Notes under the pieces: generated by a model
The model's input: the letters and a program-made list of their open reading frames with translations, nothing else
Told to the model about the DNA's origin: nothing
The model's database searches: none
Part shown: in pieces, positions 8,336 to 37,413 of the stretch
How positions within the stretch are numbered: position 1 is the stretch's first letter
How the letters are laid out: every line of letters starts with the position of its first letter
Made by a program: the position numbers and the translations under genes
Assembly (NCBI GenBank): GCA_964368135.1
Contig: CAYIZI010000002.1
Location: forward strand, 16,241-80,240
Length of the DNA: 64,000 nt
Direction: 5' to 3'
Origin: an uncultured Candidatus Saccharibacteria bacterium
GTDB lineage: Bacteria; Patescibacteriota; Minisyncoccia; 2-02-FULL-40-12

Positions 8336-8644
8336 TTATTTTCCAAGGTACTTCTTGATCTGACGCTGGAGTTCGTCTTTGACGCGGTTGATGGCAGTGC
8401 GCAGGTCTTTATTGGTATCAGTCGCCCGCAAGAGTTTTCCCGGCAATTTCAAATTCGCTTCGGCATACCAGACTATGCCTTTATGATGATGCCGCGATGG
8501 TTTGCCTATTTCCACCCTCGCCTCGACTGCTGTCGGGTCAACTTTTTTCAAAAACTTTTCTAAACTGCCAATTTTTTTCTCAACCCAAATAACCAATGCA
8601 TCATCTAACTTTATATTTGTCGGATTGATTTTTATGTGAAACAT
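8336..8644 (-). CDS. hpf: ribosome hibernation promoting factor (HPF/RaiA family, short form)
   Basis: 102 aa, starting MFHIKINPTNIKLDDALVIWVEKKIGSLEKF... with a conserved HHHKG. Matches the sigma-54 modulation/ribosomal subunit interface protein family. Confidence 0.75.
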   Translation of the reverse strand: MFHIKINPTNIKLDDALVIWVEKKIGSLEKFLKKVDPTAVEARVEIGKPSRHHHKGIVWYAEANLKLPGKLLRATDTNKDLRTAINRVKDELQRQIKKYLGK

Positions 8645-8645
8645 A

Positions 8646-10396: not shown

Positions 10397-12643
10397 TCAG
10401 CGAAGTGAGTTTATGAAATCCTGGGCTTCTTTGGTGTAGTTCGGGTCAATTTTTGCCGCCATTTGAGCGGCTTGAATGGCCTTACTTATCTCCCCTGTTT
10501 CTTTATAGGCCACTGCTAAAGAAGCAAAGTATTGAGGATTTTTTGGATTAAGTTTGACTAAAGCCTCATAAATTTCGGCGACTTTTTGGAAATTTCGCAT
10601 TCTCAAATAAATTTCGGCCACTCTCAAAGCATCTACTTCATTACTTTTATACTCGTAGCCGGACTTCTCAATGATCTCAGCGCCTTTCTGAAGATCGCCA
10701 GCCTGGGCGGTGGTAATGCCAAGATACCAGTGAGAAAGCTTGACCTCTGGATTTAACTCAACCACTTTTTCAAACCATTCAATCGCTGTTTTGTAGTCTT
10801 TTTTATTAAGGTAAACCTGAGCAACTTCATAATAAGTTCGGACAAAGGTTGGTGAAATTTCAAGAGCTTTAAGGCTGTTTTCTAAAGCCAGGTCATTAAA
10901 AGAAGAATTGGGGTCATTTTTGCCAAGGACAATGTAAGCCCGGCTGATATAAAGGTAAGGCAGATAATCCTGTGGTGATTCTTCAACATTTTTTTGGACA
11001 TTTTGGACGGCCACTAATAATCTTTCTGCTGTTTTTTGATCCACGCCAGTTTTTGAGGTAAGTTCCAGAATGTATTGGGCATAGCGGTGGCGGATTTCAT
11101 ACTTTCCAAAAGTGTCGTAGCTCATTGCTTTTTTGAATTTTTCAAAAGCCAAATCATGGTTGCCGCTCCAGGAAGCGATAATTGCTCTGGTGGTAGCATA
11201 GTTGGCTTTGGCTGGCACGACTTCAAAGAAATAAATTGAGAAAACTGCGATAATGACCAAGACCATGCCTGCGAAATTAGCCATTAAGTCTCTTTTTGGC
11301 TGAAGATTTTGAAGCTGCTGGTTTAAACTTTCTACCCTTAGCTGATTAATTAATCCAAGGATGATGAAAAACATTATAAAGTTGGCCGAGGTATCAAAAA
11401 TAAAGGAATTGTGAATCATATAGGCGACCAAGGTGGCAATCAAGCCGGCCTTTAATATTTTTTCTTCAGGATTTGAGTTCAGCCGTCTTAAATCTTGAAA
11501 GGCCCGATAGTAAATCAAAAGATAAGATAAAAAGCCGACCAAGCCCATAGTGAAAAGAACTTCAAGAAATTGATTGTGAGCCCGGTCAAATAAAGTTTCA
11601 GAACCTATTCCCCTAAAGAACTTGGGATTAAAGTGTTTTGAAAAAGGAATATTAAACATTTCCGGGCCCCAGCCCAAAAATATGGTTTTTAATGAATCGT
11701 TCCAGCCATTAAAACCAGCCTGCCAAGCCCAGGCTCGGGTCTGAACCGTATAGGCCGTAGGTGAAATGTCTGAATAGCGGGCCAAGTATTGATTCTCTCT
11801 CACAAAATCAGCCTTGCGCAGAGAGTACAAAGTTCCGGCAACAATAATAACCAGGATTGAAAAATAGATGGTATATCTTTTAACTTTAGGCGACCCAAAA
11901 CCAGCCGAGTATAAAAAACCAAATAAGATTACGCCGACAACCACGCCAAGCACCGAACCCCTGACTCCGGTCAGTAAAATCGCCAAAGCATCTATCAGAA
12001 AAACTGAACCGTAGAAAAATTTTTGGTTGTAAGAATTGCCGGGCTTAAAAAAGAGCATCAAAGCCAAAAAGGCATTAATTATAATGTAACCGGCAAAAAG
12101 AGCCGGGTTGCCAATGGTCCCGAAAATTTTTGCCCGGCCGCCAGAACCAATCACCCAGCTTAAATCAGTTTTTTGCAAAAACCCGTAAAAGGCCGAAAGC
12201 AAACTGACAAATAAAGATAGTTTAATAAAAGTAAGCCATTCTTCTTTTTTCCTTAAAACTCCAGTGGCAATAGCGAAGAAACCCCAGAAGTGCAGAAAAC
12301 TCAACCAGCCGCCCATTCGCTCTAAACTGCCAAAAAAGCTCTGATAAGTATTGGTGCTGGTAAAAGTGACCAAACCAAAAGCGGCTGTGAAAATCGTTAT
12401 CGCCCAAAAAAGAGGCGTTCGGGGAGGCGTAAATCTATAACCGTATCTGATTAACAAAATTATGTAAAAAACCGCCAGAATCTCAACCAAGGAACGAAAA
12501 ACAATAATCTTGCCAAAGTGAAAGGGCGAGATATACTGACTGAAAATAATTAGAGGGATAAAAGCAACAAAATAAATTCCATATTTCAGGAATTTTAGCA
12601 GGGCCGGCACCGCTGTTCTGGTATTGCTTTTTTGGTTTGACAT
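10397..12643 (-). CDS. O-antigen ligase (Wzy_C) family membrane protein fused to C-terminal TPR repeats
   Basis: About 12 TM helices with a Wzy_C-like loop (LTGVRGSVLGVVVG). The C-terminal ~300 aa form TPR-like repeats (AIEWFEKVVELNPEVKLSHWYLG...). Confidence 0.7.
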   Translation of the reverse strand: MSNQKSNTRTAVPALLKFLKYGIYFVAFIPLIIFSQYISPFHFGKIIVFRSLVEILAVFYIILLIRYGYRFTPPRTPLFWAITIFTAAFGLVTFTSTNTYQSFFGSLERMGGWLSFLHFWGFFAIATGVLRKKEEWLTFIKLSLFVSLLSAFYGFLQKTDLSWVIGSGGRAKIFGTIGNPALFAGYIIINAFLALMLFFKPGNSYNQKFFYGSVFLIDALAILLTGVRGSVLGVVVGVILFGFLYSAGFGSPKVKRYTIYFSILVIIVAGTLYSLRKADFVRENQYLARYSDISPTAYTVQTRAWAWQAGFNGWNDSLKTIFLGWGPEMFNIPFSKHFNPKFFRGIGSETLFDRAHNQFLEVLFTMGLVGFLSYLLIYYRAFQDLRRLNSNPEEKILKAGLIATLVAYMIHNSFIFDTSANFIMFFIILGLINQLRVESLNQQLQNLQPKRDLMANFAGMVLVIIAVFSIYFFEVVPAKANYATTRAIIASWSGNHDLAFEKFKKAMSYDTFGKYEIRHRYAQYILELTSKTGVDQKTAERLLVAVQNVQKNVEESPQDYLPYLYISRAYIVLGKNDPNSSFNDLALENSLKALEISPTFVRTYYEVAQVYLNKKDYKTAIEWFEKVVELNPEVKLSHWYLGITTAQAGDLQKGAEIIEKSGYEYKSNEVDALRVAEIYLRMRNFQKVAEIYEALVKLNPKNPQYFASLAVAYKETGEISKAIQAAQMAAKIDPNYTKEAQDFINSLR

Positions 12644-14353: not shown

Positions 14354-15382
14354 TTAAGCCAAGTCCCGTTTCTTTTTCCTAAGTTTTTCTCTTATCGGGA
14401 TTTCGGAATCAAGAACTGTTTTCACGGCATTGCCAAAAGCTAATTCCATCTCTCTAACTTCTCTGATAAGCTCGGCGAGCTCGTGCGGCTCAAGACTGGC
14501 GGCCTGGTCAGTGCCAAACATATTTTTATCCAAAGTAATATGCCGTTCGATTAAATGAGCGCCGATGGTAGCTGCAGCCAACGATGGCGCAATTCCTTTT
14601 TCATGGCCGCTATATCCTACCGGCATTCCGGGAAATTCCCGCCTTAACTTATCAATCATTTTCAGATTAAGCTCTTCTTCTTTGGCCGGGTAAGTTGAAA
14701 CAGTATGTAAAAGAATCAAATTATCAGTGCCTAAAATTCTGACTGCATGTTTAATTTCATCCATTGTGCTCATGCCGGTAGATAAAACAACTGGCCGACC
14801 CTTTTCTTTTATTTTTTCTAATAACTCATTATGGGTAAGAGAGGCGGAAGCAACTTTATAGCAAGGGAGGTTAAACCCTTCCAGAAAATCAACGCTCTCT
14901 AAATCCCAAGGCGAAGCAAACCAAAAGATTCCTTTAGTATTGCAGTAGCGGTCAATCTCTTTGTACTCGTCTTTTGTAAATTCCAAAGCCCACTTCAAAT
15001 CGCCGTTGGTTGAATCTTTAAAATCAGATTTTTTAAGACGCTCAACCGACTCTTTCGGTAGTACTCCCCTTTTGACGGCGTTTTCCAAAACCGCTCTGTC
15101 AACCTGCCGCGGCTTAGCCAATTCCTCGGCTGAATAAACCGCCGGTACCGTTCGTTTTTGAAACTTTACGGCCTGGGCTCCGGCTTCAACCGCCGCATCA
15201 ATCAGTTTCTTGGCAATCTCCAAACTGCCGTTATGATTTATCCCGATTTCAGCCACAAAAAAACAAGGCTGTTTTTTACCTACAGCAATATTGCCAATAT
15301 GGATATCGTGAGTATCTAAAGATGAATTACCAACTATAGTCCTGGCAAATCTTGCTATTGGAGAAAAAAATGCTTTAAACAT
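14354..15382 (-). CDS. N-acylneuraminate-9-phosphate/nonulosonic acid synthase family (NeuB/PseI/LegI-like)
   Basis: NeuB TIM-barrel motif FFVAEIGINHNGSLEIAKKLIDAAVEAGAQAVKFQ; length 342 aa, consistent with a C-terminal SAF domain. Confidence 0.75.
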   Translation of the reverse strand: MFKAFFSPIARFARTIVGNSSLDTHDIHIGNIAVGKKQPCFFVAEIGINHNGSLEIAKKLIDAAVEAGAQAVKFQKRTVPAVYSAEELAKPRQVDRAVLENAVKRGVLPKESVERLKKSDFKDSTNGDLKWALEFTKDEYKEIDRYCNTKGIFWFASPWDLESVDFLEGFNLPCYKVASASLTHNELLEKIKEKGRPVVLSTGMSTMDEIKHAVRILGTDNLILLHTVSTYPAKEEELNLKMIDKLRREFPGMPVGYSGHEKGIAPSLAAATIGAHLIERHITLDKNMFGTDQAASLEPHELAELIREVREMELAFGNAVKTVLDSEIPIREKLRKKKRDLA

Positions 15383-15457
15383 TGTAATGTAATTTTATCA
15401 TAGAATATTAATAATAACTGGTCAATTTTAGAAATTTGAGGTAGTATATTTAAGCTT

Positions 15458-16345
15458 ATGAAAGAAAATTTTAGAATTGGCTTCATCTGCATCGGTCCAG
15501 AAAGAAGTGGGACAACCTGGCTTTATCAATGTTTAAAGGAGCATCCTGAAATCTGCGTTTCCGAGCCAAAAGAAGTCAACTTTTTTAATTCCACTCAAAG
15601 TTTCTGGCGGAAAGATCTTATCGGCAAAAGCAATTACGAGAAAGGTTTGGATTGGTACAAAAAACATTTCAATCATTGTGGACCTGGCAAAAAAATTATC
15701 GGAGAATTTACCCCGATTTACCTACATTCTCCAGAGGTCCCGGAAAGAATCCACAAACATTTTCCGGATACGAGATTAATTTTAATTTTAAGAAATCCTA
15801 TTGAACGTCTTTACTCACACTATATGTACACCAAACTAAAAGGATTTTATGAATTGCCGTCTTTTGAAGAAGTTATTGAAAAAGAAAGAGGTTTTGTTGA
15901 AGAAAGCTTATACAATAAACATCTCCAAAATTATCTAAAGTACTTCCCGCGAGAACGTCTTTTGATAATGATTTATGAAGATATAGAAAAAAATCCCGGG
16001 GCTTTTGTTAAAGAAGTGTTTAGATTTTTAGAGATAGACGAAAACTTTGTACCGCCATCAGTAAATAAAACCATCAACCCAGCCGGAACAGTAATGGTAA
16101 GAAATAAAATCTTATCTATAAAAGATTTCGTTAAAAAAATCCCAGGCGGGAAACTTATAATTCAGCTTTTCAAAAAAACTTCTTTTTATAAAAAATTAGT
16201 TGATTCGTTAGCCACCAAAACCGGCACGGTCAAAGCCGACTACGGCAAAATCAACCCAGAAACAAAAAAACGGCTCGCCGAATTTTACAAAAAAGATATT
16301 GAAAACTTAGAAAAATTCCTTGGCCGAGATTTAAGTTGGAAATGA
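15458..16345 (+). CDS. sulfotransferase family protein
   Basis: Has the PAPS 5'-phosphosulfate-binding motif at the N-terminus (IGPERSGTTWLYQCL) and a 3'-phosphate-binding region (LILRNPIERLYSHY). Confidence 0.7.
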   Translation: MKENFRIGFICIGPERSGTTWLYQCLKEHPEICVSEPKEVNFFNSTQSFWRKDLIGKSNYEKGLDWYKKHFNHCGPGKKIIGEFTPIYLHSPEVPERIHKHFPDTRLILILRNPIERLYSHYMYTKLKGFYELPSFEEVIEKERGFVEESLYNKHLQNYLKYFPRERLLIMIYEDIEKNPGAFVKEVFRFLEIDENFVPPSVNKTINPAGTVMVRNKILSIKDFVKKIPGGKLIIQLFKKTSFYKKLVDSLATKTGTVKADYGKINPETKKRLAEFYKKDIENLEKFLGRDLSWK

Positions 16346-16355
16346 TATTCTAAAA

Positions 16356-16395
16356 GTTAAAAAAATAAAACGGGCTCGTCAAGCGACGAGCCCGT
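16356..16395 (-). terminator. rho-independent terminator downstream of the cupin gene (possibly bidirectional)
   Basis: Perfect 11-bp stem ACGGGCTCGTC/GACGAGCCCGT with loop AAGC (16370-16395), followed on the minus strand by TTTTATTTTTTT. Confidence 0.75.
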
Positions 16396-16407
16396 TCGCA
16401 ACCAAGA

Positions 16408-16869
16408 TCAGGTTTTGACCTCGATCCCCTCCAGATACTCCAGCCGGACTTTGCCTTCCGGCAGAGCCACCTTCACCACCATCAGATGACAAAGGTCAGG
16501 AGTAAAGTGCTGATGGGCCTGGCCGGCCGGGATGTGCAGCCAGTCACCCTCGTAAAGAACTACCTCCTTGCCGCCTTCGATGCTGTTAGCAAGGAAAGTC
16601 AGACCGTCTTTTGTCCAGGGATCCACGAGTCGGCCGCCCAGAACAAAACGAACGCTCCCCTCCATACAGAAGAACACGTCGTCCTCGTGGAGATGGACTT
16701 CGGCCGGACGATGCTCCACGTGGAGATTCCGGAGGAATCGAACCGGAAATCCTTCCTCGTACAGCTTGGCCGACCCTTCCAGTACATGACTCCCCTTTTT
16801 CTCGGGTTCCCCGTAGAATTCCCTTACCACACGTCCAAACACATGTCTGACTGGCCTCAACTCGCTCAT
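16408..16869 (-). CDS. cupin domain protein
   Basis: 153 aa. Cupin beta-barrel motifs (HxH...E, LHIPAGQAHQ). GC-rich. Confidence 0.6.
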   Translation of the reverse strand: MSELRPVRHVFGRVVREFYGEPEKKGSHVLEGSAKLYEEGFPVRFLRNLHVEHRPAEVHLHEDDVFFCMEGSVRFVLGGRLVDPWTKDGLTFLANSIEGGKEVVLYEGDWLHIPAGQAHQHFTPDLCHLMVVKVALPEGKVRLEYLEGIEVKT

Positions 16870-16885
16870 TGCGTCCTCCTTGGAC

Positions 16886-17962
16886 CTAAACCGCCCTGAA
16901 TACGAAATAGAAAGCCTGGGCCTGTGTCAGTAGATTCTTTTCTTCTTCAATCAAAGTATCTACCAGTTCAGCTTCGGCCTCCTCAATGATCTTCATCTTC
17001 TGTACCAACGGTAAATCTACCGTCGCCAAGTTGATCGGAACGATAATCGGGTAGAAGTCAACCGACCTTACAAGGGACGGCTCTTCAACCACAACTGTCC
17101 TCTCAAGATCAAACCCGGCTTGGGTGGCTAAATCCGGCATCTCGCTGACCCTGAACATTTTCGCATCCTTTGGAGCATCTCTTTTGATTGAGTGCCTCTC
17201 CATAAGAATCCTGTTTAGAATCGAATTCAGCTTGACGAAAACAGGATTATTATTAGAGCCGGATTTATTGAAATGCTCTTCCCGAGAAGGGTCAGTTTCT
17301 AAGGCAGTCACCTGGCGCGGTTCCATCACAACCAGAACGCCGCCAGTCTGTAGAAGGCTCCTTGCCTTCGACAGCACCTTCACGATGCAGCCGTCGGTTT
17401 CGGGCTTAAGCCCATCTTCTTCAAGCTTCTTCTTGAGTTGGTTGATTGGCCAATGAAGGACATTGTTGGCCACAGCCACATCAAAAAGAGTATCTGAAGA
17501 AAAAGACATCAGGGGTGAAGTCATTATCCGCAGCTTCAACGACTCCCAGAAGCTGTTCTGGCGAAACCCCCGCCGGAAAAATTTTAGGTATTCGACGGTT
17601 CTTTCAAACCGACGGCCCAAAACTTCTTTGGCCCCTTTCTGAACCAGCCATTCCTCCACGTCACCGCCTTCCAGAAGCAAAAACCCCATCATTTCGGTCA
17701 TTGCCCTGGAATTATCAATGGCGGTTATTGAGGCCGGGCAAAACCCAGAAATGGCAAAAGTAGAGGTACCATAACCGCAGCCAATATCCAGAACATCCTT
17801 GCCTCTTAAGCCGCCACTGGCAGTTTCGGCCAGAAGGGCTGAATTCTGGGATTGACGCAGATATGAACCACGAACCCAGCCTTCGACAGAATAAATGGCT
17901 GGGAACAAACCCTCAAAAAGATCGCCCTTGGGGTCGTAAGCATGGATAGGTCCTTCACTCAT
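16886..17962 (-). CDS. class I SAM-dependent methyltransferase
   Basis: Motif I VLDIGCGYGTSTF. GC-rich, in a possible operon with the cupin gene. Confidence 0.65.
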   Translation of the reverse strand: MSEGPIHAYDPKGDLFEGLFPAIYSVEGWVRGSYLRQSQNSALLAETASGGLRGKDVLDIGCGYGTSTFAISGFCPASITAIDNSRAMTEMMGFLLLEGGDVEEWLVQKGAKEVLGRRFERTVEYLKFFRRGFRQNSFWESLKLRIMTSPLMSFSSDTLFDVAVANNVLHWPINQLKKKLEEDGLKPETDGCIVKVLSKARSLLQTGGVLVVMEPRQVTALETDPSREEHFNKSGSNNNPVFVKLNSILNRILMERHSIKRDAPKDAKMFRVSEMPDLATQAGFDLERTVVVEEPSLVRSVDFYPIIVPINLATVDLPLVQKMKIIEEAEAELVDTLIEEEKNLLTQAQAFYFVFRAV

Positions 17963-18032
17963 TTCTCACCTTCCTTGAAGTTGATTTTCAATTTTTAAAC
18001 AGGATTTAACGGACGATACCCTGGACTTCAAG

Positions 18033-18061
18033 ACTATAAAAGAATGAAGTACTTTTGTCAA
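18033..18061 (-). promoter_or_regulatory. near-consensus sigma-70 promoter (TTGACA-17nt-TATAGT) for the methyltransferase-cupin operon
   Basis: Minus strand reads TTGACAaaagtacttcattctttTATAGT. It lies about 70 nt upstream of the MTase ATG, which is preceded by GGAAGGTGAG. Confidence 0.55.
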
Positions 18062-18879
18062 GATTTTGGATTGGCAAAAACATTATCAGTAAATTTAACC
18101 AACACTTTATAAAATCCTGGCGGGTTATCAATAAATGGGAAATGATGACTTTGGGGTATGGCCTTAACTAAACATCTGCTCTTTTTTAATTTCTCTATAA
18201 CCGATAGCCAGTTTTTATTTTCTGCACCATAAATAAAGATTTTGGGCAAATTTATTTTTAAAAAATTTTTAAGAAGATGTCCGTTCTTACAAATTTTGGC
18301 GTGAGAAACGCTAAAATCAAAATATGATTTTATTGAAACACCGTCCAATTGTCTGCCATATCTTTTAAATCCTCGGTTTTTTGATTTTTTCAAATCTTCA
18401 ACCATATCCGGGAAAAGTCTATTTCTAAAAATATCGAGGCCGGCTTTTTTAATCTTTCTTGACCACCGGGCATTTTGAGAAACCAAACTTCCTTCAACAT
18501 TCACGAAGCCGGCAACTTTTTTCGGATATTTTTCGGCATATAAAAGAGTAGCTATGCCGCCGATGCTGTGGCCGACTAAAATGAATTTTTTAAATGAAAA
18601 CTTTTTAGCGGTGTGCTCAATGATTTTTACTAAATCATTTATTCCTAAACTTTTTCTGGATGGATAAAGAGAATTACCAACTCCCGGCCAATCAAAAGCA
18701 AAAATTTCGTAATCTTTAAGTCCTTTAACTTTTACAGCATCGATAAAATCTTCTTTTGAACAGCCTAAACCATGAATAAAAATTATTGTCCCTCTTTTAC
18801 CGGGTCGATAAAAATACCTGATTTTAATTTTCGAATTTTTTAATTTAATCGGAAATTTTGAAAGATTAATATTTTTCAT
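18058..18879 (-). CDS. alpha/beta hydrolase fold protein
   Basis: HGLG oxyanion motif and GHSIGG nucleophile elbow (GxSxG). AT-rich, like the host genome. Confidence 0.7.
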   Translation of the reverse strand: MKNINLSKFPIKLKNSKIKIRYFYRPGKRGTIIFIHGLGCSKEDFIDAVKVKGLKDYEIFAFDWPGVGNSLYPSRKSLGINDLVKIIEHTAKKFSFKKFILVGHSIGGIATLLYAEKYPKKVAGFVNVEGSLVSQNARWSRKIKKAGLDIFRNRLFPDMVEDLKKSKNRGFKRYGRQLDGVSIKSYFDFSVSHAKICKNGHLLKNFLKINLPKIFIYGAENKNWLSVIEKLKKSRCLVKAIPQSHHFPFIDNPPGFYKVLVKFTDNVFANPKS

Positions 18880-18906
18880 AAAAATTTATTTAAATAAGGC
18901 GACAGT

Positions 18907-18942
18907 GAGCCTCCAAAGATTTTATAAAATCTTTGGAGGCTC
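18907..18942. repeat. perfect 36-bp palindrome (hairpin stem about 16 bp): terminator/attenuator or operator
   Basis: GAGCCTCCAAAGATTTTA|TAAAATCTTTGGAGGCTC, lying between the P-loop gene end (18952) and the hydrolase start (18879). Confidence 0.6.
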
Positions 18943-18951
18943 AAGTAAAAC

Positions 18952-19686
18952 TCAAGAACTTCGGACTTGTTCGAGCATCGCCACTGCCTCGGCAACGCGT
19001 CTTTTCAGTTCTTCTTCGCTGATCGGCATCTCGCCTCTCAGAAAAGAAAAAACTTCCTCGCGCTGATGAACCAGTGATTCTTGTGATTCGTCTGAAGTGT
19101 TAAGGTACAAAGGAATGTAACCAGCCGGCGGAATCTCAATCTGTCGGGCGCCACGAAGGAAACCGTCGAAGTCGAACACGCTGGCGTTGGTGATATTGCC
19201 GACGGTTTCCAATTCCCGCTGACGATAAGCAATCCGCCGCCTGACCGCCTCCAAATCGCAGTAGAAGTAGATGCATCTGAAATGTACTGTGATCGGCAAT
19301 TCCGGAATCGGTTTCCCGTCCCTTTCTGCTTCCTCACGCTCAATGGTCTGAAGGTACCAGTTGGCGCTTTCAAGCATCTCAACGAACGGCACCTGGTGAG
19401 CTTTACGAGTCAGCATCACCATTTCCAGAAACACGGCTTGAGGCCTCTCTACTATCAGCTTAGTCTTCACCTCGAATCGAGTCGCCTCGTTCTTGAAGAC
19501 GTGCTCGATCTTAACGATGTGAACGTCACTTCTCGTCGGCCAGAAGCGCTGACGGACATCGTCCATAGACACAAAAACAGCATCCTTGTACTCGGGTAAA
19601 CTCATTACCCAATTCCGGAAGAATGACTTGCCGCTGAAAACCAGACCGGAGAAAACACTGACCAAAATCACCTGATTATTACCCAT
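18952..19686 (-). CDS. P-loop NTPase/kinase-like hypothetical protein
   Basis: Walker A motif GLVFSGKS near the N-terminus. GC is intermediate to high. No further family recognised. Confidence 0.4.
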   Translation of the reverse strand: MGNNQVILVSVFSGLVFSGKSFFRNWVMSLPEYKDAVFVSMDDVRQRFWPTRSDVHIVKIEHVFKNEATRFEVKTKLIVERPQAVFLEMVMLTRKAHQVPFVEMLESANWYLQTIEREEAERDGKPIPELPITVHFRCIYFYCDLEAVRRRIAYRQRELETVGNITNASVFDFDGFLRGARQIEIPPAGYIPLYLNTSDESQESLVHQREEVFSFLRGEMPISEEELKRRVAEAVAMLEQVRSS

Positions 19687-19713
19687 ACCATCCTCCTTTT
19701 TAATGAACCGTTG

Positions 19714-19743
19714 TTGACTTTTTCAAGCTAATACCTTATATAA
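19714..19743 (+). promoter_or_regulatory. putative sigma-70 promoter (TTGACT-17nt-TATATAAT) for the KdsC-like phosphatase gene
   Basis: TTGACT at 19714-19719 and TATATAAT at 19736-19743; the ATG is at 19757. Confidence 0.45.
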
Positions 19744-19756
19744 TTAAATCAATAAT

Positions 19757-20281
19757 ATGTCAAACAGCCGTATAAAAATTCCTAAAAAACTCTTACTAAA
19801 ACTAAAAAGACTTAAACTTGTCGGTTTTGATTTCGATGGCATTTTCACTGATGGAAAAGTTATATTGAGCGAAGATGGAATTGAACATGTGATATGTAGC
19901 CGCAAAGACGGACTTGGTATTAATGAACTGCAACGTCTCGGCTTGAAATTGACAGTTATTTCAAAAGAACCAAATAAAATAGTTGCGACGCGAAGTAAAA
20001 AACTTAAAATCGAGTATGCTCACGGGATAAACGATAAATTAACTCTCTTTAAAAAAATACTTAAAGAAAAAAAGATAAGCCCTTCAGAGGCGGCTTTTAT
20101 GGGTGATGATTGGAATGATTTGGAGTGTATGAATTATGCCGGTGTGGCTTTTACTGTAGCTGACGCAAACCCTCTATGTAAAAGGGTCGCTGATTATACA
20201 ACTAGCCGAAAGGGAGGTGATCACGCCATAAGAGAAATATGCGATTTAATTGTTTTAGCAAAAGAAAAACGGTATAAATAA
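19757..20281 (+). CDS. HAD-IIIA phosphatase, KdsC/nonulosonate-9-phosphate phosphatase family
   Basis: FDFDGIFTDG motif I and GDDWNDLECM motif IV; 174 aa, typical of KdsC-type phosphatases. Confidence 0.7.
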   Translation: MSNSRIKIPKKLLLKLKRLKLVGFDFDGIFTDGKVILSEDGIEHVICSRKDGLGINELQRLGLKLTVISKEPNKIVATRSKKLKIEYAHGINDKLTLFKKILKEKKISPSEAAFMGDDWNDLECMNYAGVAFTVADANPLCKRVADYTTSRKGGDHAIREICDLIVLAKEKRYK

Positions 20282-20282
20282 T

Positions 20283-21167
20283 TTAGCCAAACAAACTCGT
20301 AATCACTATTCCAGCAAGCATTATACTGGTGGCAAGTAATCTCTCTTTTATATTTTTTTCCTGTAAAAGCCGACCGCTTAAAATCACGGCCCAAAATGAC
20401 CAGAGCCGCTTAACACTGGCGGCATAGGCGGCCAAAGTGTAGTTAAGTGCTTGGGCAGTCAGAAAAAAACCGGCAATATTGACCACAACCATTAAAAAAA
20501 TAATGCGCCGATTTACTTTTAAATGTTTAAAAATCGAAAAATCTTTTTTCTGAACAGTATAAATAGCCAAACTGACTAACCCGACAATAATCAGATAAAT
20601 TGCAGAAAAAAACAAAGCTGATGAAGTTACTACCGCTTTTTTATCAAAAGGAAAAGAAAAAGCAAAAAATAAGGCACCTAATATCCCTAAAAGTATGCCT
20701 TTCTGTTCAAAAATATTGGCTAAACTAATTTTTTTGCCCTCCGGATTAACTAAAAACCAAAGGCCGGCTATAGTAGTTAAAACGCCAATCATGCCCCAGA
20801 AAGATGCTTTCTCGCCCAAAATAAAAAAACCGGTTATTAAAACAAGCGGCGGGGTCAACAGTCTGGTTGGAGAAATTATAGAAGCATCATCCTGACTAAA
20901 GGCTTTGTAGTAAATCCAGTGGCCGAATAAGCCCAAGACAGAAGTCATAAAAAAAGCCAACCAAAAGCCTTGTTTAATCTCCGGGAAATCGAAAAAGAAA
21001 ATAAACAAAATAGAAATAAAAATACCGGAAAGCAAAAAATTAAAAGCAAGAAGGAGTCTCTCGTTTATCTTGCCGTCTCTCAGGGCATACCTGATTACTA
21101 CATCCAAAAGCCCGGCGAAAAAAGTGCCGGGAATCATAAAGAGTAGAAATAATTTAATGTTCTCCAT
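20283..21167 (-). CDS. EamA/DMT-superfamily transporter
   Basis: About 10 TM helices in two 5-TM halves; 294 aa. Confidence 0.6.
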   Translation of the reverse strand: MENIKLFLLFMIPGTFFAGLLDVVIRYALRDGKINERLLLAFNFLLSGIFISILFIFFFDFPEIKQGFWLAFFMTSVLGLFGHWIYYKAFSQDDASIISPTRLLTPPLVLITGFFILGEKASFWGMIGVLTTIAGLWFLVNPEGKKISLANIFEQKGILLGILGALFFAFSFPFDKKAVVTSSALFFSAIYLIIVGLVSLAIYTVQKKDFSIFKHLKVNRRIIFLMVVVNIAGFFLTAQALNYTLAAYAASVKRLWSFWAVILSGRLLQEKNIKERLLATSIMLAGIVITSLFG

Positions 21168-21730
21168 TATTTCTTTTTAGAACTGCTTTTCGCCTGAATA
21201 ATCAAATCACAAACTTCTCTTACTGCTCCGTCACCGCCTTTGGCTTTAGTCACGTAATCAGCCACTTTTTTTGCTTCTTTGGCGCCATCACCCACGCAGA
21301 CCGAAAGGCCGACAAATTTCATTATTTCAATGTCGCCGGTGCTGTCGCCGACAAAACAAATATCCTTTAAGCTTGCCTTGGGATGATTTTCTTTTAAATA
21401 CTCTTTGAGACCAGCAACTTTGTCTTTATTCTGGACTAAAGGAACGCCGAGCTTCCAGGCCCGGGCCTGGACATAACCGCTTCTCTGGGTAGTTAAAATA
21501 AAAACCGAAACCCCGACATTTTCTTTCCGCACTAAATCTATCCCCTGACCGTCTTTATGAGAATATCTGGCCGATTCAAAAACATAAACAAAATCTCGAC
21601 CGGTATGCTGGCTCGCCGCTTCTTTGGTCATAATAACACCGGTATCAAGATATAAAGGCGTCAGCACCCCGTCATTATCAAGAGCCAGGACTTTTACTTT
21701 CTTGAATTTGTCTAAAAGTTTTTTAGTCAT
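21167..21730 (-). CDS. HAD-IIIA phosphatase, KdsC family (second copy)
   Basis: LDNDGVLT motif I and GDSTGDIEIM motif IV; 187 aa. Confidence 0.65.
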   Translation of the reverse strand: MTKKLLDKFKKVKVLALDNDGVLTPLYLDTGVIMTKEAASQHTGRDFVYVFESARYSHKDGQGIDLVRKENVGVSVFILTTQRSGYVQARAWKLGVPLVQNKDKVAGLKEYLKENHPKASLKDICFVGDSTGDIEIMKFVGLSVCVGDGAKEAKKVADYVTKAKGGDGAVREVCDLIIQAKSSSKKK

Positions 21731-21850
21731 ATTAGAGTCATATTAGATTTAAATAACAATAATTCTTTGAATCGTCAATTGTTGTAATTTTTCAAAAAAT
21801 GATAGATAATATAATCCTGAACTTTTCGCACCTTACCAAGGAGGTTAGAC

Positions 21851-23620
21851 ATGGCGAAGCTAAACGTAATCCAGCCCCATATCCACCCTTCAGAGGTGGT
21901 AAGGGGCATAACGGCAAGAGATCTTGAGGGTCTCAACGTTGTTTTCATCAATATGCCGCTTCGGGAAACGGCGCTACCAAACACCACACCCGAGGGTCCG
22001 CTATTAATGGCGACAAACCTGATTCGGAACTATGGGGTTAGTGCTTCAGTAATTGACCTCAACGCTTACCGGATTAAAGACGAGCTGGCTCAAAAACGCG
22101 GACTCCCGCGAGGCCGCCACCTGACCGAAGAAGAGGCCTTTGGTAAAATCCAACGCCATTTCCTCAAATTTGGCGAACCAGACCTTGTTTGCCTTTCAGG
22201 AATGATCACCACTCTGAAGTGGCAAAAAGCAGTGGCGGGAATGGTCCGCCGGCTGGTACCTAACACTATGCTCGTTTCTGGCGGGGGCCTGGCTACTGAA
22301 TTAAAAGTGGGACTGTTTAACTACACCCCTGAACTCGATGGAGTGGCCCACTCCGAAGGAGACGATGTCATCGTCAAAATCTGCTACGACGCGGCGGTTA
22401 TTCGGCGCCACGGCCGGCAACATGCTCTCAACTCGGGCAAGCTCGAACCCTATTTACTGCAGGACGGCTCCGGCCGTCTGATGTACGAAGGCGATCGGCC
22501 CGATGATTTGGACCGATTCCCATGGGTTGACCTTGAGCTTTTGCGCGAAGATGTTGACGGGGTCAAAATCCTTGAGCAATATCTTCAAGCCGAAGCTTGG
22601 GGACTTAGCGCAAACAACAGCTCGGCGGCACCGTTTGTAACCGCGCCGAAAACCACTTCGGTTTCTTCCCGCGGCTGTCCCTATGGCTGCAAATACTGCT
22701 ATCGGGGCGCCCAAGGAGAACGCAAGTGGCACGTGAGGTCGGCCCGCCATCTGGTTGAGGAAATGAAAGAACACATGGCAAAGTACGGCATAGCTTTCAA
22801 GAGCTGGCCGGACGACAACTTTGCGGTGACATTCAAAAGGATTAAGGAACTCCGGGATATCATTGTCGCAGAAGGCATCAAGATTCCCTGGGGAACCCAC
22901 ACTCGCCTCGACGAAGCCGGTGGCTTTGTTCCTAACTCACGTCAACCCCATCACGAGAGAAACTTCTTTACCGACTATATCTTTGAGGATCCGCTCCGGA
23001 TCAAGCTAATGGCTGAAGCCAACTGTAAGTACGTCGGCTTTGGACCAGAAAGCGCTCACCCAGACACCCTTGAAGAACTCGGCAAAGGAGGCTTCACTCT
23101 CAAGGCAGGTTTGATCCCAGTTGGAGTCAACGGCCATACCTACTACTTCCCCAAAGCCATGATCTATGGAACCAAGCACACCATGGAAGCGGGGATTCAC
23201 GCCAACATGACCTGGATCAAGTTTAATCCGGGAGAAACGCTGGAACGGCTCAAGCAGACAGTTGCCTTCATCAAATGGCAGATTGATTACTACGCAACCT
23301 TCGGAATACCGGAAGAAGCGGTGAATAAAAACATGTTCACTCTTACCTGGTATCCTGGGACGGAACTAATCAATCACCCTAAGGTGAGGTTAGAACTTTC
23401 GCGCGTCTTCGGTCTGAATTTCCAAAGGATCAACGGCAAGTGGGACCCTGTCTGCGATGAGGCGTTCTACCGGTATTGCCTGGAACTAGACGACGCCACC
23501 AAGCTCCTTCACGGCCCGGACGGCGAACCGCTGAACTTCAGCGAAATGCCAAACGACTTGGCCCTACAAATCAACGAGTATGTCAGCTCCGGCCAAACTC
23601 TTCGTATCCTGGACATATAA
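21851..23620 (+). CDS. B12-binding domain radical SAM protein (class B radical SAM-like)
   Basis: N-terminal cobalamin-binding-like Rossmann segment, then the radical SAM CxxxCxxC motif (CPYGCKYC). 589 aa. About 52-55% GC in about 33% GC surroundings. Strong AAGGAGG Shine-Dalgarno. Confidence 0.7.
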   Translation: MAKLNVIQPHIHPSEVVRGITARDLEGLNVVFINMPLRETALPNTTPEGPLLMATNLIRNYGVSASVIDLNAYRIKDELAQKRGLPRGRHLTEEEAFGKIQRHFLKFGEPDLVCLSGMITTLKWQKAVAGMVRRLVPNTMLVSGGGLATELKVGLFNYTPELDGVAHSEGDDVIVKICYDAAVIRRHGRQHALNSGKLEPYLLQDGSGRLMYEGDRPDDLDRFPWVDLELLREDVDGVKILEQYLQAEAWGLSANNSSAAPFVTAPKTTSVSSRGCPYGCKYCYRGAQGERKWHVRSARHLVEEMKEHMAKYGIAFKSWPDDNFAVTFKRIKELRDIIVAEGIKIPWGTHTRLDEAGGFVPNSRQPHHERNFFTDYIFEDPLRIKLMAEANCKYVGFGPESAHPDTLEELGKGGFTLKAGLIPVGVNGHTYYFPKAMIYGTKHTMEAGIHANMTWIKFNPGETLERLKQTVAFIKWQIDYYATFGIPEEAVNKNMFTLTWYPGTELINHPKVRLELSRVFGLNFQRINGKWDPVCDEAFYRYCLELDDATKLLHGPDGEPLNFSEMPNDLALQINEYVSSGQTLRILDI

Positions 23621-23644
23621 GTAGTGCGGACTCTCGTACGCCAG

Positions 23645-23692
23645 GAAAAAAGCCCGACAGGTTCATCTTGTCGGGCTTCGCTCTTTATTTTT
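23645..23692. terminator. bidirectional rho-independent terminator between the convergent radical SAM and cytidylyltransferase genes
   Basis: AAAAAA-GCCCGACAGG-ttcatc-TTGTCGGGC-TTcgcTCTTTATTTTT: a hairpin with an A-tract upstream and a T-tract downstream. Confidence 0.75.
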
Positions 23693-24398
23693 CGCCCCCT
23701 CTCCTCTTCAAAATCTTGCCAATCAGCCAAAACTGGTATTCGCTGTCAACTTGGAGAGAGTCTTCCTCGGTCATCTGGACAATCGCCATTTTCCCGCCCC
23801 AGCGATGGCCGATTTTATGAAATAAATCTGTCTTAGTTATATAAAAAGCTCCGTTCTCATGATAAACTTTTGGTAAATCCTGCCTGACCACTCTTTTCAT
23901 CACCGGAACTTCCGGTTCAAAAGCAACCTCTCTGCCTGACTCATCAACCTTCGGCCGCCATTTCCACTCATAGGTTTCAGGCAAAAAAGCAGTGATGCAA
24001 GAATCAAAACCTTGATTCTTTACCCTATTCACGCACTCCTTTATAATTTCTGATTTTAAAAGCGGCGAAGTCGGCTGAATGCAGGAAACGAAATCAGGCA
24101 CGTAATTTTCTTTTTCTCTTAAATAATCCAAAGCATGTTTAATTACCGGCTCAAGAGTAATCTTATCGCCAGCCAGTTCTTTTGGCCGGTCAACCACCTC
24201 GGCCCCGAATTTCTTAGCCACTCCCGCAATCTCGGCATCGTCAGTTGAAACAATCACCCTATCCACTACACCAGAATTCAAAACCGCTTCAATAGTATGA
24301 GCAACTAAGGGCTTCTCGTTTAACAATCTTATATTTTTTCGGGGCACTCCTTTGGAACCGCCCCGCGCCGGAATTATAGTAATAATTTTTGGCTTCAT
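23685..24398 (-). CDS. acylneuraminate/nonulosonate cytidylyltransferase family (CMP-NeuAc/CMP-Kdo synthetase-like)
   Basis: N-terminal IIPARGGSKGVPRKN motif; 237 aa. Confidence 0.75.
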   Translation of the reverse strand: MKPKIITIIPARGGSKGVPRKNIRLLNEKPLVAHTIEAVLNSGVVDRVIVSTDDAEIAGVAKKFGAEVVDRPKELAGDKITLEPVIKHALDYLREKENYVPDFVSCIQPTSPLLKSEIIKECVNRVKNQGFDSCITAFLPETYEWKWRPKVDESGREVAFEPEVPVMKRVVRQDLPKVYHENGAFYITKTDLFHKIGHRWGGKMAIVQMTEEDSLQVDSEYQFWLIGKILKRRGGEK

Positions 24399-24403: not shown

Positions 24404-25021
24404 TTATACTTTGTGGCTAAGGCGGAAAAATAAGTAGTTAGAGATTATATGGACCAATAAAAGATGCAGCGACTCTACCGGCCCATAGTGGCCCTTTGGC
24501 GAAGTTGCGGTAATTACATGAGCGCAGCAGTTTTTTGCCTCACCGCCGTCAAATCCAAGAACCCCGACAGTGTTTCCGCCTTTAGAATTAACATATTCTA
24601 TAGCTCTAATCAAGTTTGGCGAATCTCCGCTTCCTGAAAAAACAATAAGAACATCGCCGGGTTTATAAAGATTCCTCAACTGCCCGACAAAAACTTTCTC
24701 ATATCCCTCGTCATTGCCTAAAGCGCTTAGGTAAGGAACGCTGTCGCTTAAACTTAGGGTTCTAAACGGCTTGTCTTCCCCGGCCCCGGCGCAAAGAGCC
24801 AAGTCTTCGACAAAATGAGAAGCATTAGCCGCGCTTCCGCCGTTTCCCACTACAAAAATCATTGAACCGCGCTCCCTTGCTTCTAAAAGAGTGTCAACTA
24901 ACTTTTCAACTGAGCCAATGTCAATCGATTTTGTTAAATCAAAAAAATGTTCGGTATATTTTTTGAAAAACTGATTGAACGATCCGTTTGATTCTTTAAA
25001 AAATTGTTCTATCTGTTTCAT
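24404..25021 (-). CDS. SIS-domain sugar-phosphate isomerase (GmhA-like sedoheptulose-7-phosphate isomerase)
   Basis: VVGNGGSAANASHFVEDL and SGSGDSPN motifs; 205 aa, single SIS domain. Confidence 0.65.
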   Translation of the reverse strand: MKQIEQFFKESNGSFNQFFKKYTEHFFDLTKSIDIGSVEKLVDTLLEARERGSMIFVVGNGGSAANASHFVEDLALCAGAGEDKPFRTLSLSDSVPYLSALGNDEGYEKVFVGQLRNLYKPGDVLIVFSGSGDSPNLIRAIEYVNSKGGNTVGVLGFDGGEAKNCCAHVITATSPKGHYGPVESLHLLLVHIISNYLFFRLSHKV

Positions 25022-26686: not shown

Positions 26687-27190
26687 TTAAACTGTATAAA
26701 CTTTTCCTTCCTTTATTGATTTTATAATATCCCTGCTGGCAAATTTTTTATCCTTGGTATACCTAATTAAACAACCGGCTTTAATTGCATCTCTTTTCTC
26801 ATTTAAAAAACTTCCTGATTTTGAATTTATATAGTCAGGCCCTCTGATGTAATATTTTGGTTTTATTAAATTGATAATCTTTGATACATTACTCTGTTTA
26901 TTATGTCTATTAAATATGGCAAAATCAACGGAACTTAACTGACTGACCATATACGCTCTTAAATCTTCATTAAAAATTGGCCGACCCGGGCCTTTTTGTT
27001 TTCTTACTGATTTATCATCAGCCACAGCTACGACTAAAACATCGCAAAGCTTTTTGGCTGATTCAAAATGCATAACATGGCCTGGGTGCAAAAGATCGTA
27101 GTTACCATTGCAAAACCCGATTCTTTTACCTTGTTTTCTGTAATTTTCTATTATCTTGGCTAATTTACTGATTGAAACTACTTTTCCCAT
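26687..27190 (-). CDS. cytidylyltransferase-like nucleotidyltransferase (HldE domain II / heptose-1-phosphate adenylyltransferase-like)
   Basis: GFCNGNYDLLHPGH: the (H/T)xGH nucleotidyltransferase motif. The start is chosen at the internal ATG (MGKVV...) to avoid a 56-nt overlap with the next gene; the track ORF runs to 27259. Confidence 0.6.
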   Translation of the reverse strand: MGKVVSISKLAKIIENYRKQGKRIGFCNGNYDLLHPGHVMHFESAKKLCDVLVVAVADDKSVRKQKGPGRPIFNEDLRAYMVSQLSSVDFAIFNRHNKQSNVSKIINLIKPKYYIRGPDYINSKSGSFLNEKRDAIKAGCLIRYTKDKKFASRDIIKSIKEGKVYTV

Positions 27191-27203
27191 ATTAAAATTT
27201 AAA

Positions 27204-28208: not shown

Positions 28209-28220
28209 AAATTTTATAAG

Positions 28221-30249: not shown

Positions 30250-30253
30250 AAAA

Positions 30254-33059: not shown

Positions 33060-33060
33060 T

Positions 33061-34053: not shown

Positions 34054-34056
34054 AAA

Positions 34057-37375: not shown

Positions 37376-37413
37376 AGAGGCGAAACCCACGCCTCTTCTT
37401 TTTTTATTTTTTT
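37376..37413 (+). terminator. rho-independent terminator of the second radical SAM gene
   Basis: AGAGGCG-aaaccca-CGCCTCT hairpin followed by TCTTTTTTTATTTTTTT. Confidence 0.7.

Follow-up and report, generated by a model that had tools for sequence, protein, structure and literature searches.

The DNA stretch analysed here (the window) comprises 64,000 nucleotides of contig CAYIZI010000002.1 (assembly GCA_964368135.1) from an uncultured Candidatus Saccharibacteria bacterium. Between positions 14354 and 25021 it carries a gene module that probably directs the biosynthesis of a cytidine monophosphate (CMP)-activated nonulosonic acid of the 2-keto-3-deoxynonulosonic acid (Kdn) type by a phosphate route, inside a surface-glycan locus of a member of the Candidate Phyla Radiation (CPR, Patescibacteria). 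A route of the Kdn type, consisting of synthase, phosphatase and CMP activation, is well supported. The sugar substrate would be a hexose 6-phosphate or a heptose 7-phosphate, between which sequence alone cannot decide. This reading is built on family memberships, conserved catalytic residues and recurrent gene linkage, all of them observed directly.

The original prediction, made from the letters of the DNA, had named five genes, i.e. a NeuB-like synthase, two KdsC-type phosphatases flanking an EamA transporter, and a cytidylyltransferase. All five open reading frames (ORFs) exist exactly as it gave them, their families were confirmed with E values far beyond chance, and independent contigs carry the set again. 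Its proposal that synthase, phosphatases and cytidylyltransferase are enough to make and activate a sugar acid holds in principle, namely for an acid of the Kdn type. The module is wider than it had been drawn, since a GmhA-like SIS isomerase, a P-loop kinase found only in CPR bacteria and a B12-binding radical S-adenosylmethionine (SAM) enzyme travel along. Six genes within the same 10-kb span had been left unnamed, coding for a sulfotransferase, a cupin, a methyltransferase, a hydrolase, the P-loop kinase-like protein and the B12-binding radical SAM enzyme. Coordinates and family assignments are collected in Table 1; loci from other genomes are denoted by L and a number.

A NeuB-family synthase without SAF domain

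The synthase is a member of the NeuB family, as had been predicted, but not a canonical NeuB, PseI or LegI: it has no SAF domain, remains below the curated cut-offs and falls in a separate, phosphatase-coupled clade. Its Pfam score has to be compared with a cut-off of 22.1 bits for PF03102, and it reaches 262.1 bits with TIGR03569 (NeuB_NnaB; cut-off 399.65) and 207.3 bits with the PseI equivalog (cut-off 340.25). Pfam gave no SAF match in the protein, the match to TIGR03569 stops at model position 278 of 329, and the chain ends 21 residues past the barrel. In the alignment to Neisseria meningitidis NeuB (PDB entry 1xuu) the residues E45, K73, Q75, S157, K176, S179, S201, Y231, S258, H260, E279, H281 and D292 are kept. 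They correspond to E25, K53, Q55, T110, K129, S132, S154, Y186, S213, H215, E234, H236 and D247 of the meningococcal enzyme, for which we assume the catalytic, metal-binding and phosphoenolpyruvate (PEP)-binding roles given in its structure papers. Among 61 homologues these positions are invariant or nearly so.

The AlphaFold2 (AF2) model of the synthase has a mean predicted local distance difference test score (pLDDT) of 93.7. Its top Foldseek matches are 6ncs, N. meningitidis NeuB (1xuu) and Campylobacter jejuni PseI (8h2c also matched), with E values of 1e-26 to 1e-23. [quoted passage not shown] No KdsA-type Pfam match (DAHP_synth_1) was found in the synthase. The alternative considered along with the original prediction, that the enzyme groups with KdsA and belongs to ordinary lipopolysaccharide core biosynthesis, was examined and is rejected on these grounds. 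A loop following strand 2 (residues 77–135) is modelled as helical with a pLDDT of 97–98. From the topology of the TIM barrel it should lie on the catalytic face because it follows directly after the substrate-contacting Gln at the end of this strand.

A pattern scan over one genome per GTDB species yielded at least 588 relatives of the synthase in at least 600 candidate stretches. Neighbours were counted in the best 80 species loci of these relatives (65 non-CPR and 15 CPR), the ORFs of which were searched with the window proteins. Among these 80 loci are ones from CPR, Acidobacteriota, Gastranaerophilales, Gammaproteobacteria, Nitrospiraceae, Muribaculaceae, cyanobacteria, Polyangia and Verrucomicrobiota. 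All but one of 94 clade members (93) carry the motif KFQKR. In 63 of 66 non-CPR sequences it is separated from the K(V/I)(A/G)S strand by 72 residues, in 21 of 28 CPR sequences by 98–105 residues, the CPR members having an extra loop of 26–33 residues (26 in the window enzyme). This longer spacing places the window enzyme in a CPR “long-loop” sub-clade. We predict that it is a sugar-phosphate:PEP ulosonate-phosphate synthase, namely the long-loop form within the KFQKR clade. The clade is large, spans many phyla, is not named by current models and is apparently uncharacterised. A search of the literature on SAF-less NeuB turned up only a paper on Caulobacter flagellin, and nothing usable was found on nonulosonic or sialic acid biosynthesis in CPR/Patescibacteria, on KDN9PP/KDO8PP or on a Kdn-9-phosphate synthase.

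Outside CPR a KdsC-type phosphatase gene directly follows that of the synthase in 47 of 65 loci (within 300 bp), and 50 of 65 have one within 10 kb; the corresponding CPR counts are 1/15 and 4/15. A GmhA-like SIS gene lies within 10 kb in 26/65 non-CPR and 5/15 CPR loci (31–32 of 80 overall) and within 300 bp in 15/65 and 5/15 (20 loci together). Within 10 kb, cytidylyltransferase genes occur in 9/65 non-CPR and 13/15 CPR loci, genes of B12-binding radical SAM enzymes in 0/65 and 4/15, those of Wzy_C-TPR proteins in 2/65 and 7/15, and those of acetolactate synthase (ALS)-like, thiamine diphosphate (ThDP)-dependent enzymes in 33/65 and 0/15. In Giovannonibacteria (L006/L007, 2039–13173) a canonical set of NeuC and NeuB with SAF domain stands alongside a SAF-less NeuB-like gene with its cytidylyltransferase, and the locus further encodes an ABC exporter and a Capsule_synth protein of the KpsS/KpsC type. 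Neither synthase type is thus redundant with the other.

A conserved and uncharacterised operon with the order NeuB-like, KdsC-like, ALS-like is seen in Acidobacteria bacterium AB60 (L039, 3775–17315) and in 32 other non-CPR loci. In L039 the ALS-like gene is followed by genes for a xylose-isomerase-like TIM protein, a GFO/IDH/MocA oxidoreductase, a short-chain dehydrogenase/reductase (SDR) and an FkbM methyltransferase. Upstream there are DegT and GmhA-like genes, but a cytidylyltransferase gene was not found within 10 kb. This arrangement suggests a different fate for the ulosonate. A link of the non-CPR NeuB-KdsC-ThDP-IolE/IolG-like operon to bradyrhizose, a bicyclic ten-carbon sugar, was considered and dropped, as the paper on the bradyrhizose genes did not support it.

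The one characterised relative compared, the Kdn-9-phosphate synthetase (EC 2.5.1.132) of the alga Prymnesium parvum, uses only mannose 6-phosphate and rejects N-acetylmannosamine (ManNAc) 6-phosphate, arabinose 5-phosphate and free sugars (PMC6200933, Table 1). Its sequence, translated from the supplement of that paper, is 33% identical to the window synthase; both proteins lack the SAF domain and both have the motif KFQKR. Non-CPR clade members align to the algal enzyme without a gap across the loop. The algal enzyme scores 110–166 bits against clade members and 74–87 bits against canonical NeuB proteins with SAF domain from the same loci, and a profile of the algal sequences gives 143 bits for the window synthase as compared to 81–107 bits for canonical NeuB. 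A homologue search with the P. parvum enzyme retrieved algal sequences only (at least 73% identity) and did not reach BT1714 of Bacteroides thetaiotaomicron. Judged by profile scores, the KFQKR clade, the algal Kdn-9-phosphate synthetase and canonical NeuB are three separate clades; the window synthase appears to resemble the P. parvum enzyme in architecture and motif and not by orthology.

Two phosphatases and an EamA protein

Both phosphatases belong to the KdsC family. Phosphatase 1 has the HAD motifs DFDGIFTDG and GDDWND, and its best PDB matches are 3mmz (103 bits) and KdsC (97 bits). Phosphatase 2 (KdsC2) has DNDGVLT and GDSTGD, with an insertion of 18 residues after HAD motif I. That both keep HAD motifs I–IV is supported by their alignments to KdsC structures. 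The family assignment and the motifs thus bear out the predicted pair of KdsC-type enzymes, but the “9-phosphate” attached to them is an interpretation and not an observation; neither protein reaches the substrate-assigning equivalog cut-offs of 208 bits for KdsC and 180 bits for Kdn-9-phosphate phosphatase (Kdn9PP). Phosphatase 1 is the candidate ulosonate-phosphate phosphatase. The two proteins are 34% identical and therefore old paralogues, not products of a recent duplication. Most KdsC-like ORFs near NeuB-like genes (64 of 73) are closer to phosphatase 1 than to phosphatase 2, and the KdsC2 type was seen only in close CPR relatives.

The stop codon of KdsC2 overlaps the start codon of the EamA gene (TAATG at 21167), an arrangement of translational coupling. 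EamA homologues with 76–87% identity are present on nine metagenome contigs, and all contigs long enough to be judged place the gene inside the module. L091 is syntenic with the window, both phosphatases included; L093–L095 have one operon of EamA, P-loop kinase, KdsC1-type phosphatase and NeuB-like synthase; and the 12-gene operon of L096 ends with SIS isomerase, cytidylyltransferase, KdsC2 and EamA, the ORFs of cytidylyltransferase and KdsC2 overlapping. KdsC1-type genes accompany the P-loop kinase (L008, L010, L093) and KdsC2-type genes accompany EamA, the radical SAM enzyme and the cytidylyltransferase. The duplicated phosphatase and the EamA gene in between, which had been regarded as unusual, are conserved features of a CPR sub-lineage and not a local oddity. 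The suggested kinship of the EamA protein with CMP-sialic acid transporters found no support either: a phmmer search through the sequences of all PDB chains returned no match at E≤10, hence no similarity to a nucleotide-sugar transporter, and in NCBIfam only weak matches to amino-acid and carboxylate exporters were obtained.

Cytidylyltransferase, isomerase and kinase

The cytidylyltransferase gene is the final one of a long minus-strand operon and is followed by a hairpin (23650–23678). Its product matches NeuA (9ftb, 118.5 bits) and mouse CMAS (1qwj, 115.7 bits) among PDB chains as opposed to about 40 bits for KdsB; with the PseF equivalog it scores 151 bits (cut-off 205.7). The enzyme is therefore expected to activate an acid of nine carbons or more rather than 3-deoxy-D-manno-octulosonic acid (Kdo), and the predicted affiliation with NeuA/KdsB enzymes for a Kdo-type acid has to be narrowed to the NeuA/CMAS type, with Kdo unlikely.

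Five bases upstream, in the same operon, lies the gene of the SIS isomerase, which probably supplies the aldose phosphate. All of its best PDB matches are GmhA (88 bits), and the phosphate loop SGSGDSPN as well as the His, acidic and His positions are kept. NeuB-adjacent SIS proteins elsewhere range from divergent (93–136 bits) to essentially canonical GmhA (196–212 bits; cut-off 209), the highest scores being those of L033 (212, the only one above the cut-off), L042 (208), L039 (201) and L020 (196).

The P-loop protein gave no sequence match in PDB and was resolved by its fold alone. Its AF2 model (pLDDT 90) resembles adenosine 5'-phosphosulfate (APS) kinase, gluconate kinase and the 6-phosphofructo-2-kinase domain. 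A search of 5.8 billion proteins found only 27 homologues, and those that carry a name are all from CPR bacteria.

The proposed route

We propose that the GmhA-like isomerase would supply an aldose phosphate, either mannose 6-phosphate from fructose 6-phosphate or heptose 7-phosphate from sedoheptulose 7-phosphate; as another source, the CPR-specific kinase may phosphorylate a free sugar imported by EamA. The SAF-less synthase would condense the aldose phosphate with PEP to a 3-deoxy-2-ulosonate with terminal phosphate, a KdsC-family phosphatase would remove this phosphate and the NeuA/CMAS-type enzyme would form the CMP-sugar. Tailoring might then involve the B12-binding radical SAM enzyme, SAM methyltransferases, the sulfotransferase with 3'-phosphoadenosine 5'-phosphosulfate (PAPS) made within the locus, the alpha/beta hydrolase and the cupin, before glycosyltransferases, Wzx and Wzy_C-TPR proteins install the sugar in the surface glycan. 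The main argument for a phosphorylated intermediate is the tight adjacency of synthase and phosphatase across phyla, the second is the specificity of the P. parvum relative for mannose 6-phosphate; in the window itself two KdsC-like genes lie within 6 kb of the synthase gene. We infer that the substrate is phosphorylated, and likewise its identity, the order of tailoring and the roles of kinase, EamA and second phosphatase. Import by EamA followed by kinase, synthase and phosphatase would, by analogy, follow the logic of the vertebrate route via ManNAc kinase, NANS and NANP.

Several findings weigh against this proposal. The profile of the clade itself gives 167 bits for the P. parvum enzyme and 210–227 bits for canonical NeuB. 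Nor do the family models tell which substrate the phosphatases use: with the KdsC and Kdn9PP equivalogs phosphatase 1 scores 128 and 95 bits and phosphatase 2 scores 92 and 64 bits, and ten NeuB-adjacent phosphatases from other phyla are all below both cut-offs as well. A KdsC-like gene occurs within 10 kb in only 4 of the 15 species loci from CPR, and the phosphate route is therefore best supported outside CPR and in the close relatives of the window. Should the sugar phosphate come from the isomerase, a kinase would not be needed. Finally, most non-CPR loci have no cytidylyltransferase gene and instead the ThDP enzyme comes next, so the product of the clade is not always a CMP-activated end product.

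Alternative explanations

The same logic could apply to D-glycero-D-manno-heptose 7-phosphate as substrate and lead to a ten-carbon 3-deoxy-ulosonic acid instead of Kdn, which we consider unlikely. It would explain why all PDB and NCBIfam matches of the SIS protein are phosphoheptose isomerases and why the four highest-scoring NeuB-adjacent relatives lie at or near the GmhA cut-off. HldE-type kinase/adenylyltransferase homologues were not found within 10 kb in 89 loci even at E 1e-3, and activation of heptose is therefore not the obvious use of the isomerase; the extra loop of the CPR synthases, with its inferred placement on the catalytic face, also counts in favour. On the other hand we know of no described ten-carbon ulosonic acid, the isomerase of the window is divergent (85 bits) and could equally convert fructose 6-phosphate to mannose 6-phosphate, the RfaE-I-like and RfaE-II-like gene products of the window could consume heptose 7-phosphate, and RmlA-like nucleotidyltransferases occur in 15 loci. 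Somewhat less likely again is an extended version, according to which the long-loop synthase would join PEP and heptose 7-phosphate to a ten-carbon acid that is CMP-activated and then C-methylated by the radical SAM enzyme and/or sulfated, with EamA, kinase and phosphatase as a salvage branch for host sugars. If true, this acid would represent an undescribed class of sugar on the surface of ultra-small episymbiotic bacteria. The two phosphatases might also serve two pathways, phosphatase 1 acting on the ulosonate phosphate and KdsC2 replacing GmhB in the synthesis of a nucleoside diphosphate (NDP)-heptose by the SIS isomerase, the PfkB kinase and the RfaE-II-like nucleotidyltransferase. This idea, compatible with the proposed Kdn-type route, is doubtful to about the same degree as the simple heptose variant. 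GmhB and KdsC are both capless HAD-IIIA enzymes, the window has GmhA-like, RfaE-I-like and RfaE-II-like genes and no GmhB, and the operon of L096 joins KdsC2 with a nucleotidyltransferase, a 4,6-dehydratase and the SIS isomerase. However, KdsC2 orthologues in L008 and L090 stand beside NeuB-like and radical SAM genes with neither PfkB nor nucleotidyltransferase genes within 10 kb, L092 has heptose-like genes and no KdsC2, and no match to a GmhB model was obtained at E≤0.01.

Three further explanations depart from the proposed route in its chemistry. A classical synthesis that starts from a non-phosphorylated hexose derivative and yields N-acetylneuraminic, pseudaminic or legionaminic acid, with the phosphatases in unrelated jobs, is improbable. 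NeuB and PseI are indeed the best NCBIfam matches of the synthase, the cytidylyltransferase fits the PseF model best, and a DegT aminotransferase and several dehydratases are encoded elsewhere in the window; but all three equivalog cut-offs are missed by a wide margin, the SAF domain is missing, and the recommended look for upstream genes found no PseB/C, LegB/C or NeuC (Epimerase_2) set in the window. The cross-phylum adjacency of synthase and phosphatase speaks against it too, as does L006 of Giovannonibacteria, where the presence of NeuC and NeuB with SAF domain implies a different role for the SAF-less enzyme. Even less probable is an eight-carbon, Kdo-like pathway with the NeuB-like enzyme in the place of KdsA and the isomerase producing arabinose 5-phosphate, followed by KdsC and CMP activation. 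The layout of isomerase, synthase, KdsC and cytidylyltransferase mirrors that of KdsD, KdsA, KdsC and KdsB, phosphatase 1 scores slightly better with KdsC than with Kdn9PP models, and in L006 the Capsule_synth gene lies two genes upstream of that of the SAF-less synthase. The enzyme types disagree, however, since the cytidylyltransferase is of the NeuA/CMAS type, the isomerase of the GmhA and not the KdsD type and the synthase not KdsA-like, and arabinose 5-phosphate is rejected by the P. parvum relative (PMC6200933, Table 1). We give a similarly low chance to the ulosonate being an intermediate that the ALS-like enzyme decarboxylates or extends by a two-carbon unit, the cytidylyltransferase activating something else. 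The gene order NeuB-like, KdsC-like, ALS-like in 33 of the 65 loci outside CPR, most of which have no cytidylyltransferase, would fit this, as would the operon shared by the ALS-like, SIS and cytidylyltransferase genes in the window and L096; but among CPR loci the cytidylyltransferase is the most constant partner and the ALS-like gene is absent within 10 kb. Moreover, the ALS-like gene of the window sits with E1 alpha/beta, 4,6-dehydratase and nucleotidyltransferase genes, for which branched NDP-sugar chemistry fits better, and it need not be an orthologue of the non-CPR copies.

Tailoring genes and the surrounding glycan locus

The window belongs to a contig of 97,952 bp. The organism is an ultra-small groundwater Patescibacteria/CPR bacterium, the sample being a 0.1-µm-filtered Hainich groundwater metagenome, and the module is part of a surface-glycan locus of at least 50 kb. 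Wherever the homologues of window proteins are named they are from Patescibacteria/CPR. Starting at about 10.4 kb, Pfam and NCBIfam reveal nothing but glycan machinery up to the last position of the window. Around the module it comprises an initiating Bac_transf, Wzx, three Wzy_C proteins, at least eight GT4 glycosyltransferases and one GT2, and further genes code for a glycerophosphotransferase, DegT, several dehydratases and epimerases, PAPS synthase and a second B12-binding radical SAM enzyme.

Table 1. Genes of the module and of the surrounding glycan locus (positions refer to the window)
Feature	Position	Strand	Family evidence and remarks
Wzy_C (O-antigen ligase/polymerase-like) proteins	10397-12643, 54896-56953, 56934-58211		two of three fused to C-terminal TPR repeats
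SAF-less NeuB-family PEP-condensing synthase, 342 aa	14354-15382	-	PF03102 NeuB, E 7.8e-78, 261.7 bits
Sulfotransferase, candidate tailoring enzyme	15458-16345	+	Sulfotransfer_1, E 2.5e-22
Small cupin	16408-16869	-	Cupin_2, 28 bits; weak JmjC_2
Class I SAM methyltransferase, putative tailoring enzyme	16886-17962	-	Methyltransf_23/25/31; syntenic in L002 and L091
Alpha/beta hydrolase	18058-18879	-	Abhydrolase_1, E 2.3e-19
CPR-restricted P-loop small-molecule kinase-like protein	18952-19686	-	Walker A GLVFSGKS
KdsC-family HAD phosphatase 1 (“standard”), 174 aa	19757-20281	+	TIGR01670, 125 bits (above cut-off 106.95)
EamA/DMT membrane protein, 294 aa	20283-21167	-	two EamA repeats; Pfam EamA, 99 bits
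KdsC-family HAD phosphatase 2 (KdsC2, divergent), 187 aa	21167-21730	-	TIGR01670, 81.1 bits (below cut-off 106.95)
B12-binding (class B) radical SAM enzyme	21851-23620	+	Radical_SAM and B12-binding; NCBIfam all far below cut-off
CMP-nonulosonate synthetase, NeuA/CMAS type, 237 aa	23685-24398	-	PF02348 CTP_transf_3, E 4.4e-31, 108.8 bits
GmhA-like SIS sugar-phosphate isomerase	24404-25021	-	SIS_2; GmhA models 85 bits (below cut-offs 209-276)
RfaE-II-like nucleotidyltransferase	26687-27259	-	RfaE domain II, 105 bits
ALS-like ThDP enzyme	30254-32056	-	TPP_enzyme N/M/C domains; TIGR00118, 455 bits (below cut-off 538)
PfkB kinase, RfaE-I-like	34057-35133	-	RfaE domain I, 107 bits
Second B12-binding radical SAM enzyme, 693 aa	35272-37353	+	
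CDP-glycerol glycerophosphotransferase-like	39872-41263	-	beside Wzx
Bifunctional ATP sulfurylase/APS kinase, PAPS supply for sulfotransferase	46085-47779	-	PUA_2, ATP-sulfurylase and APS_kinase domains

Most candidates for tailoring recur in related loci. The cupin gene is the last of a unit of kinase, hydrolase, methyltransferase and cupin genes that ends at a terminator-like site (16368–16397); in L004, a CPR locus, a cupin gene follows directly after that of the NeuB-like synthase, and in L091 it is syntenic. The alpha/beta hydrolase, possibly an esterase or an acyl-handling tailoring enzyme, is encoded after EamA in L090 and after AAA33 in L091. The B12-binding radical SAM enzyme, a candidate for C-methylation or another radical tailoring step, adjoins the module in L004, L008, L015, L016, L040, L063 and L090–L096; its gene has a GC content of 53% in a locus of about 39%. 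That a second such enzyme is encoded in the same locus is notable because CPR genomes are generally considered incapable of cobalamin synthesis. A sulfotransferase and a PAPS synthase occur in the glycan locus of two CPR contigs, namely the window and L004 (252–1160 and 15794–17620), where both adjoin the NeuB-like gene. This co-occurrence implies that the surface glycan of these bacteria is sulfated.

The ALS-like ThDP enzyme is possibly linked to the module. In L096 its gene shares an operon with those of SIS isomerase, cytidylyltransferase, KdsC2 and EamA, and NeuB-linked ALS-like proteins show in NCBIfam only a generic, sub-threshold similarity to acetolactate synthase. In the window it forms a ThDP trio with E1 alpha and E1 beta that shares an operon with the nucleotidyltransferase and the 4,6-dehydratase. 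This minus-strand operon (26687–35133) codes for the PfkB (RfaE-I-like) kinase, an epimerase, an SDR, the ALS-like enzyme, proteins like pyruvate dehydrogenase E1 alpha and beta, the 4,6-dehydratase, the RfaE-II-like nucleotidyltransferase, a methyltransferase and a zinc-dependent alcohol dehydrogenase. It looks like a pathway for a branched-chain NDP-heptose or NDP-hexose with a two-carbon branch, presumably comparable to YerE or aldgarose-type chemistry.

The glycerophosphotransferase-like gene suggests that the glycan polymer may contain teichoic-acid-like phosphodiester links. Two ORFs inside the locus (37404–38600, 398 aa, and 47776–49449, 557 aa) gave no Pfam match at E≤0.01. The GC content per gene varies across the locus from 31% to 56% and that of third codon positions (GC3) from 0.26 to 0.64: it amounts to 56% in the cupin gene, 50% in the kinase-like gene, 49% in the methyltransferase gene and 52–53% in the two genes of B12-binding radical SAM enzymes, compared to 31–42% in their neighbours. 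This mosaic (16408–23620 and 35272–37353) suggests that genes were acquired from different donors. Terminator-like hairpins at 16368–16397 (13-bp stem) and 23650–23678 bound transcription units. Genes of a ribosome hibernation factor and SecA adjoin the glycan locus both in the window (5508–10370) and in Giovannonibacteria (L006, 19871–20945), which hints at a conserved chromosomal position. A PG_binding_1 protein is encoded at the edge of both loci, in the window beside hibernation factor and SecA and in L006 at the opposite end.

The genomes of CPR/Patescibacteria are tiny, the cells rely on contact with a host, and their surface glycans are almost unstudied. This organism devotes at least 50 kb to one glycan locus, which holds genes for an acidic sugar resembling sialic acid, for sulfation, for two radical enzymes that depend on cobalamin and for the branching of sugars by ThDP enzymes. 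The analysis also exposes a cross-phylum clade of SAF-less KFQKR synthases that are usually coupled with a KdsC-type phosphatase, and the function of a single member would annotate many genomes at once. It would reveal either a much wider distribution of Kdn than has been supposed or the existence of a new sugar acid with more carbons.

Comparison with known systems

The window synthase has the TIM-barrel fold of the bacterial NeuB, PseI and LegI enzymes and keeps their catalytic, metal-binding and PEP-binding residues. It differs by the absence of the SAF domain, which caps the active site of the partner subunit, by scores below the curated cut-offs, by its coupling with phosphatases and by KFQKR after strand 2, where NmNeuB has KHQT(H); upstream NeuC, PseB-H or LegB-H genes are not found in the window. 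The closest protein of known structure is 6ncs from Leptospira, named N-acetylneuraminic acid synthetase in the title of the entry. This “NeuB” is the best PDB match by sequence (152 bits) as well as by structure (Foldseek E 6e-26) and is SAF-less, too (290 aa), but its motif reads KFQA where the clade has KFQKR, and the loop that follows strand 2 is much shorter.

The Kdo pathway (KdsD, KdsA, KdsC and KdsB) follows the same four-step logic with a phosphatase of the same family, whereas in the window the synthase is of the NeuB type, the isomerase of the GmhA type and the cytidylyltransferase of the NeuA type. Similarities to the vertebrate pathway of GNE kinase, NANS, NANP and CMAS extend from the kinase and a synthase acting on a 6-phosphate sugar to phosphatase and CMP activation. 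In addition, vertebrate CMAS has a C-terminal KdsC-like domain (PDB 3ewi, which matches both window phosphatases), and the overlapping ORFs of cytidylyltransferase and KdsC2 in L096 recall this arrangement. In contrast, NANS has a SAF/AFP domain and the window has no UDP-GlcNAc 2-epimerase; the P-loop kinase is unrelated to the ROK-type ManNAc kinase, and NANP belongs to a different HAD subtype.

The nearest counterpart is the CMP-Kdn pathway of B. thetaiotaomicron (BT1714, BT1713 and CMP-Kdn synthetase) and P. parvum, BT1714 and BT1713 being the Kdn-9-phosphate synthase and the Kdn-9-phosphate phosphatase. There, too, a NeuB-family synthase acts on a sugar phosphate and is followed by a capless HAD phosphatase of the KdsC family and a NeuA-type cytidylyltransferase. 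The window synthase departs from it by its low identity (33%) to the P. parvum enzyme and by the 26-residue CPR-specific loop, and both window phosphatases stay below the Kdn9PP cut-off. To this common core the window adds a dedicated isomerase, a kinase, EamA, a B12-binding radical SAM enzyme and a second phosphatase.

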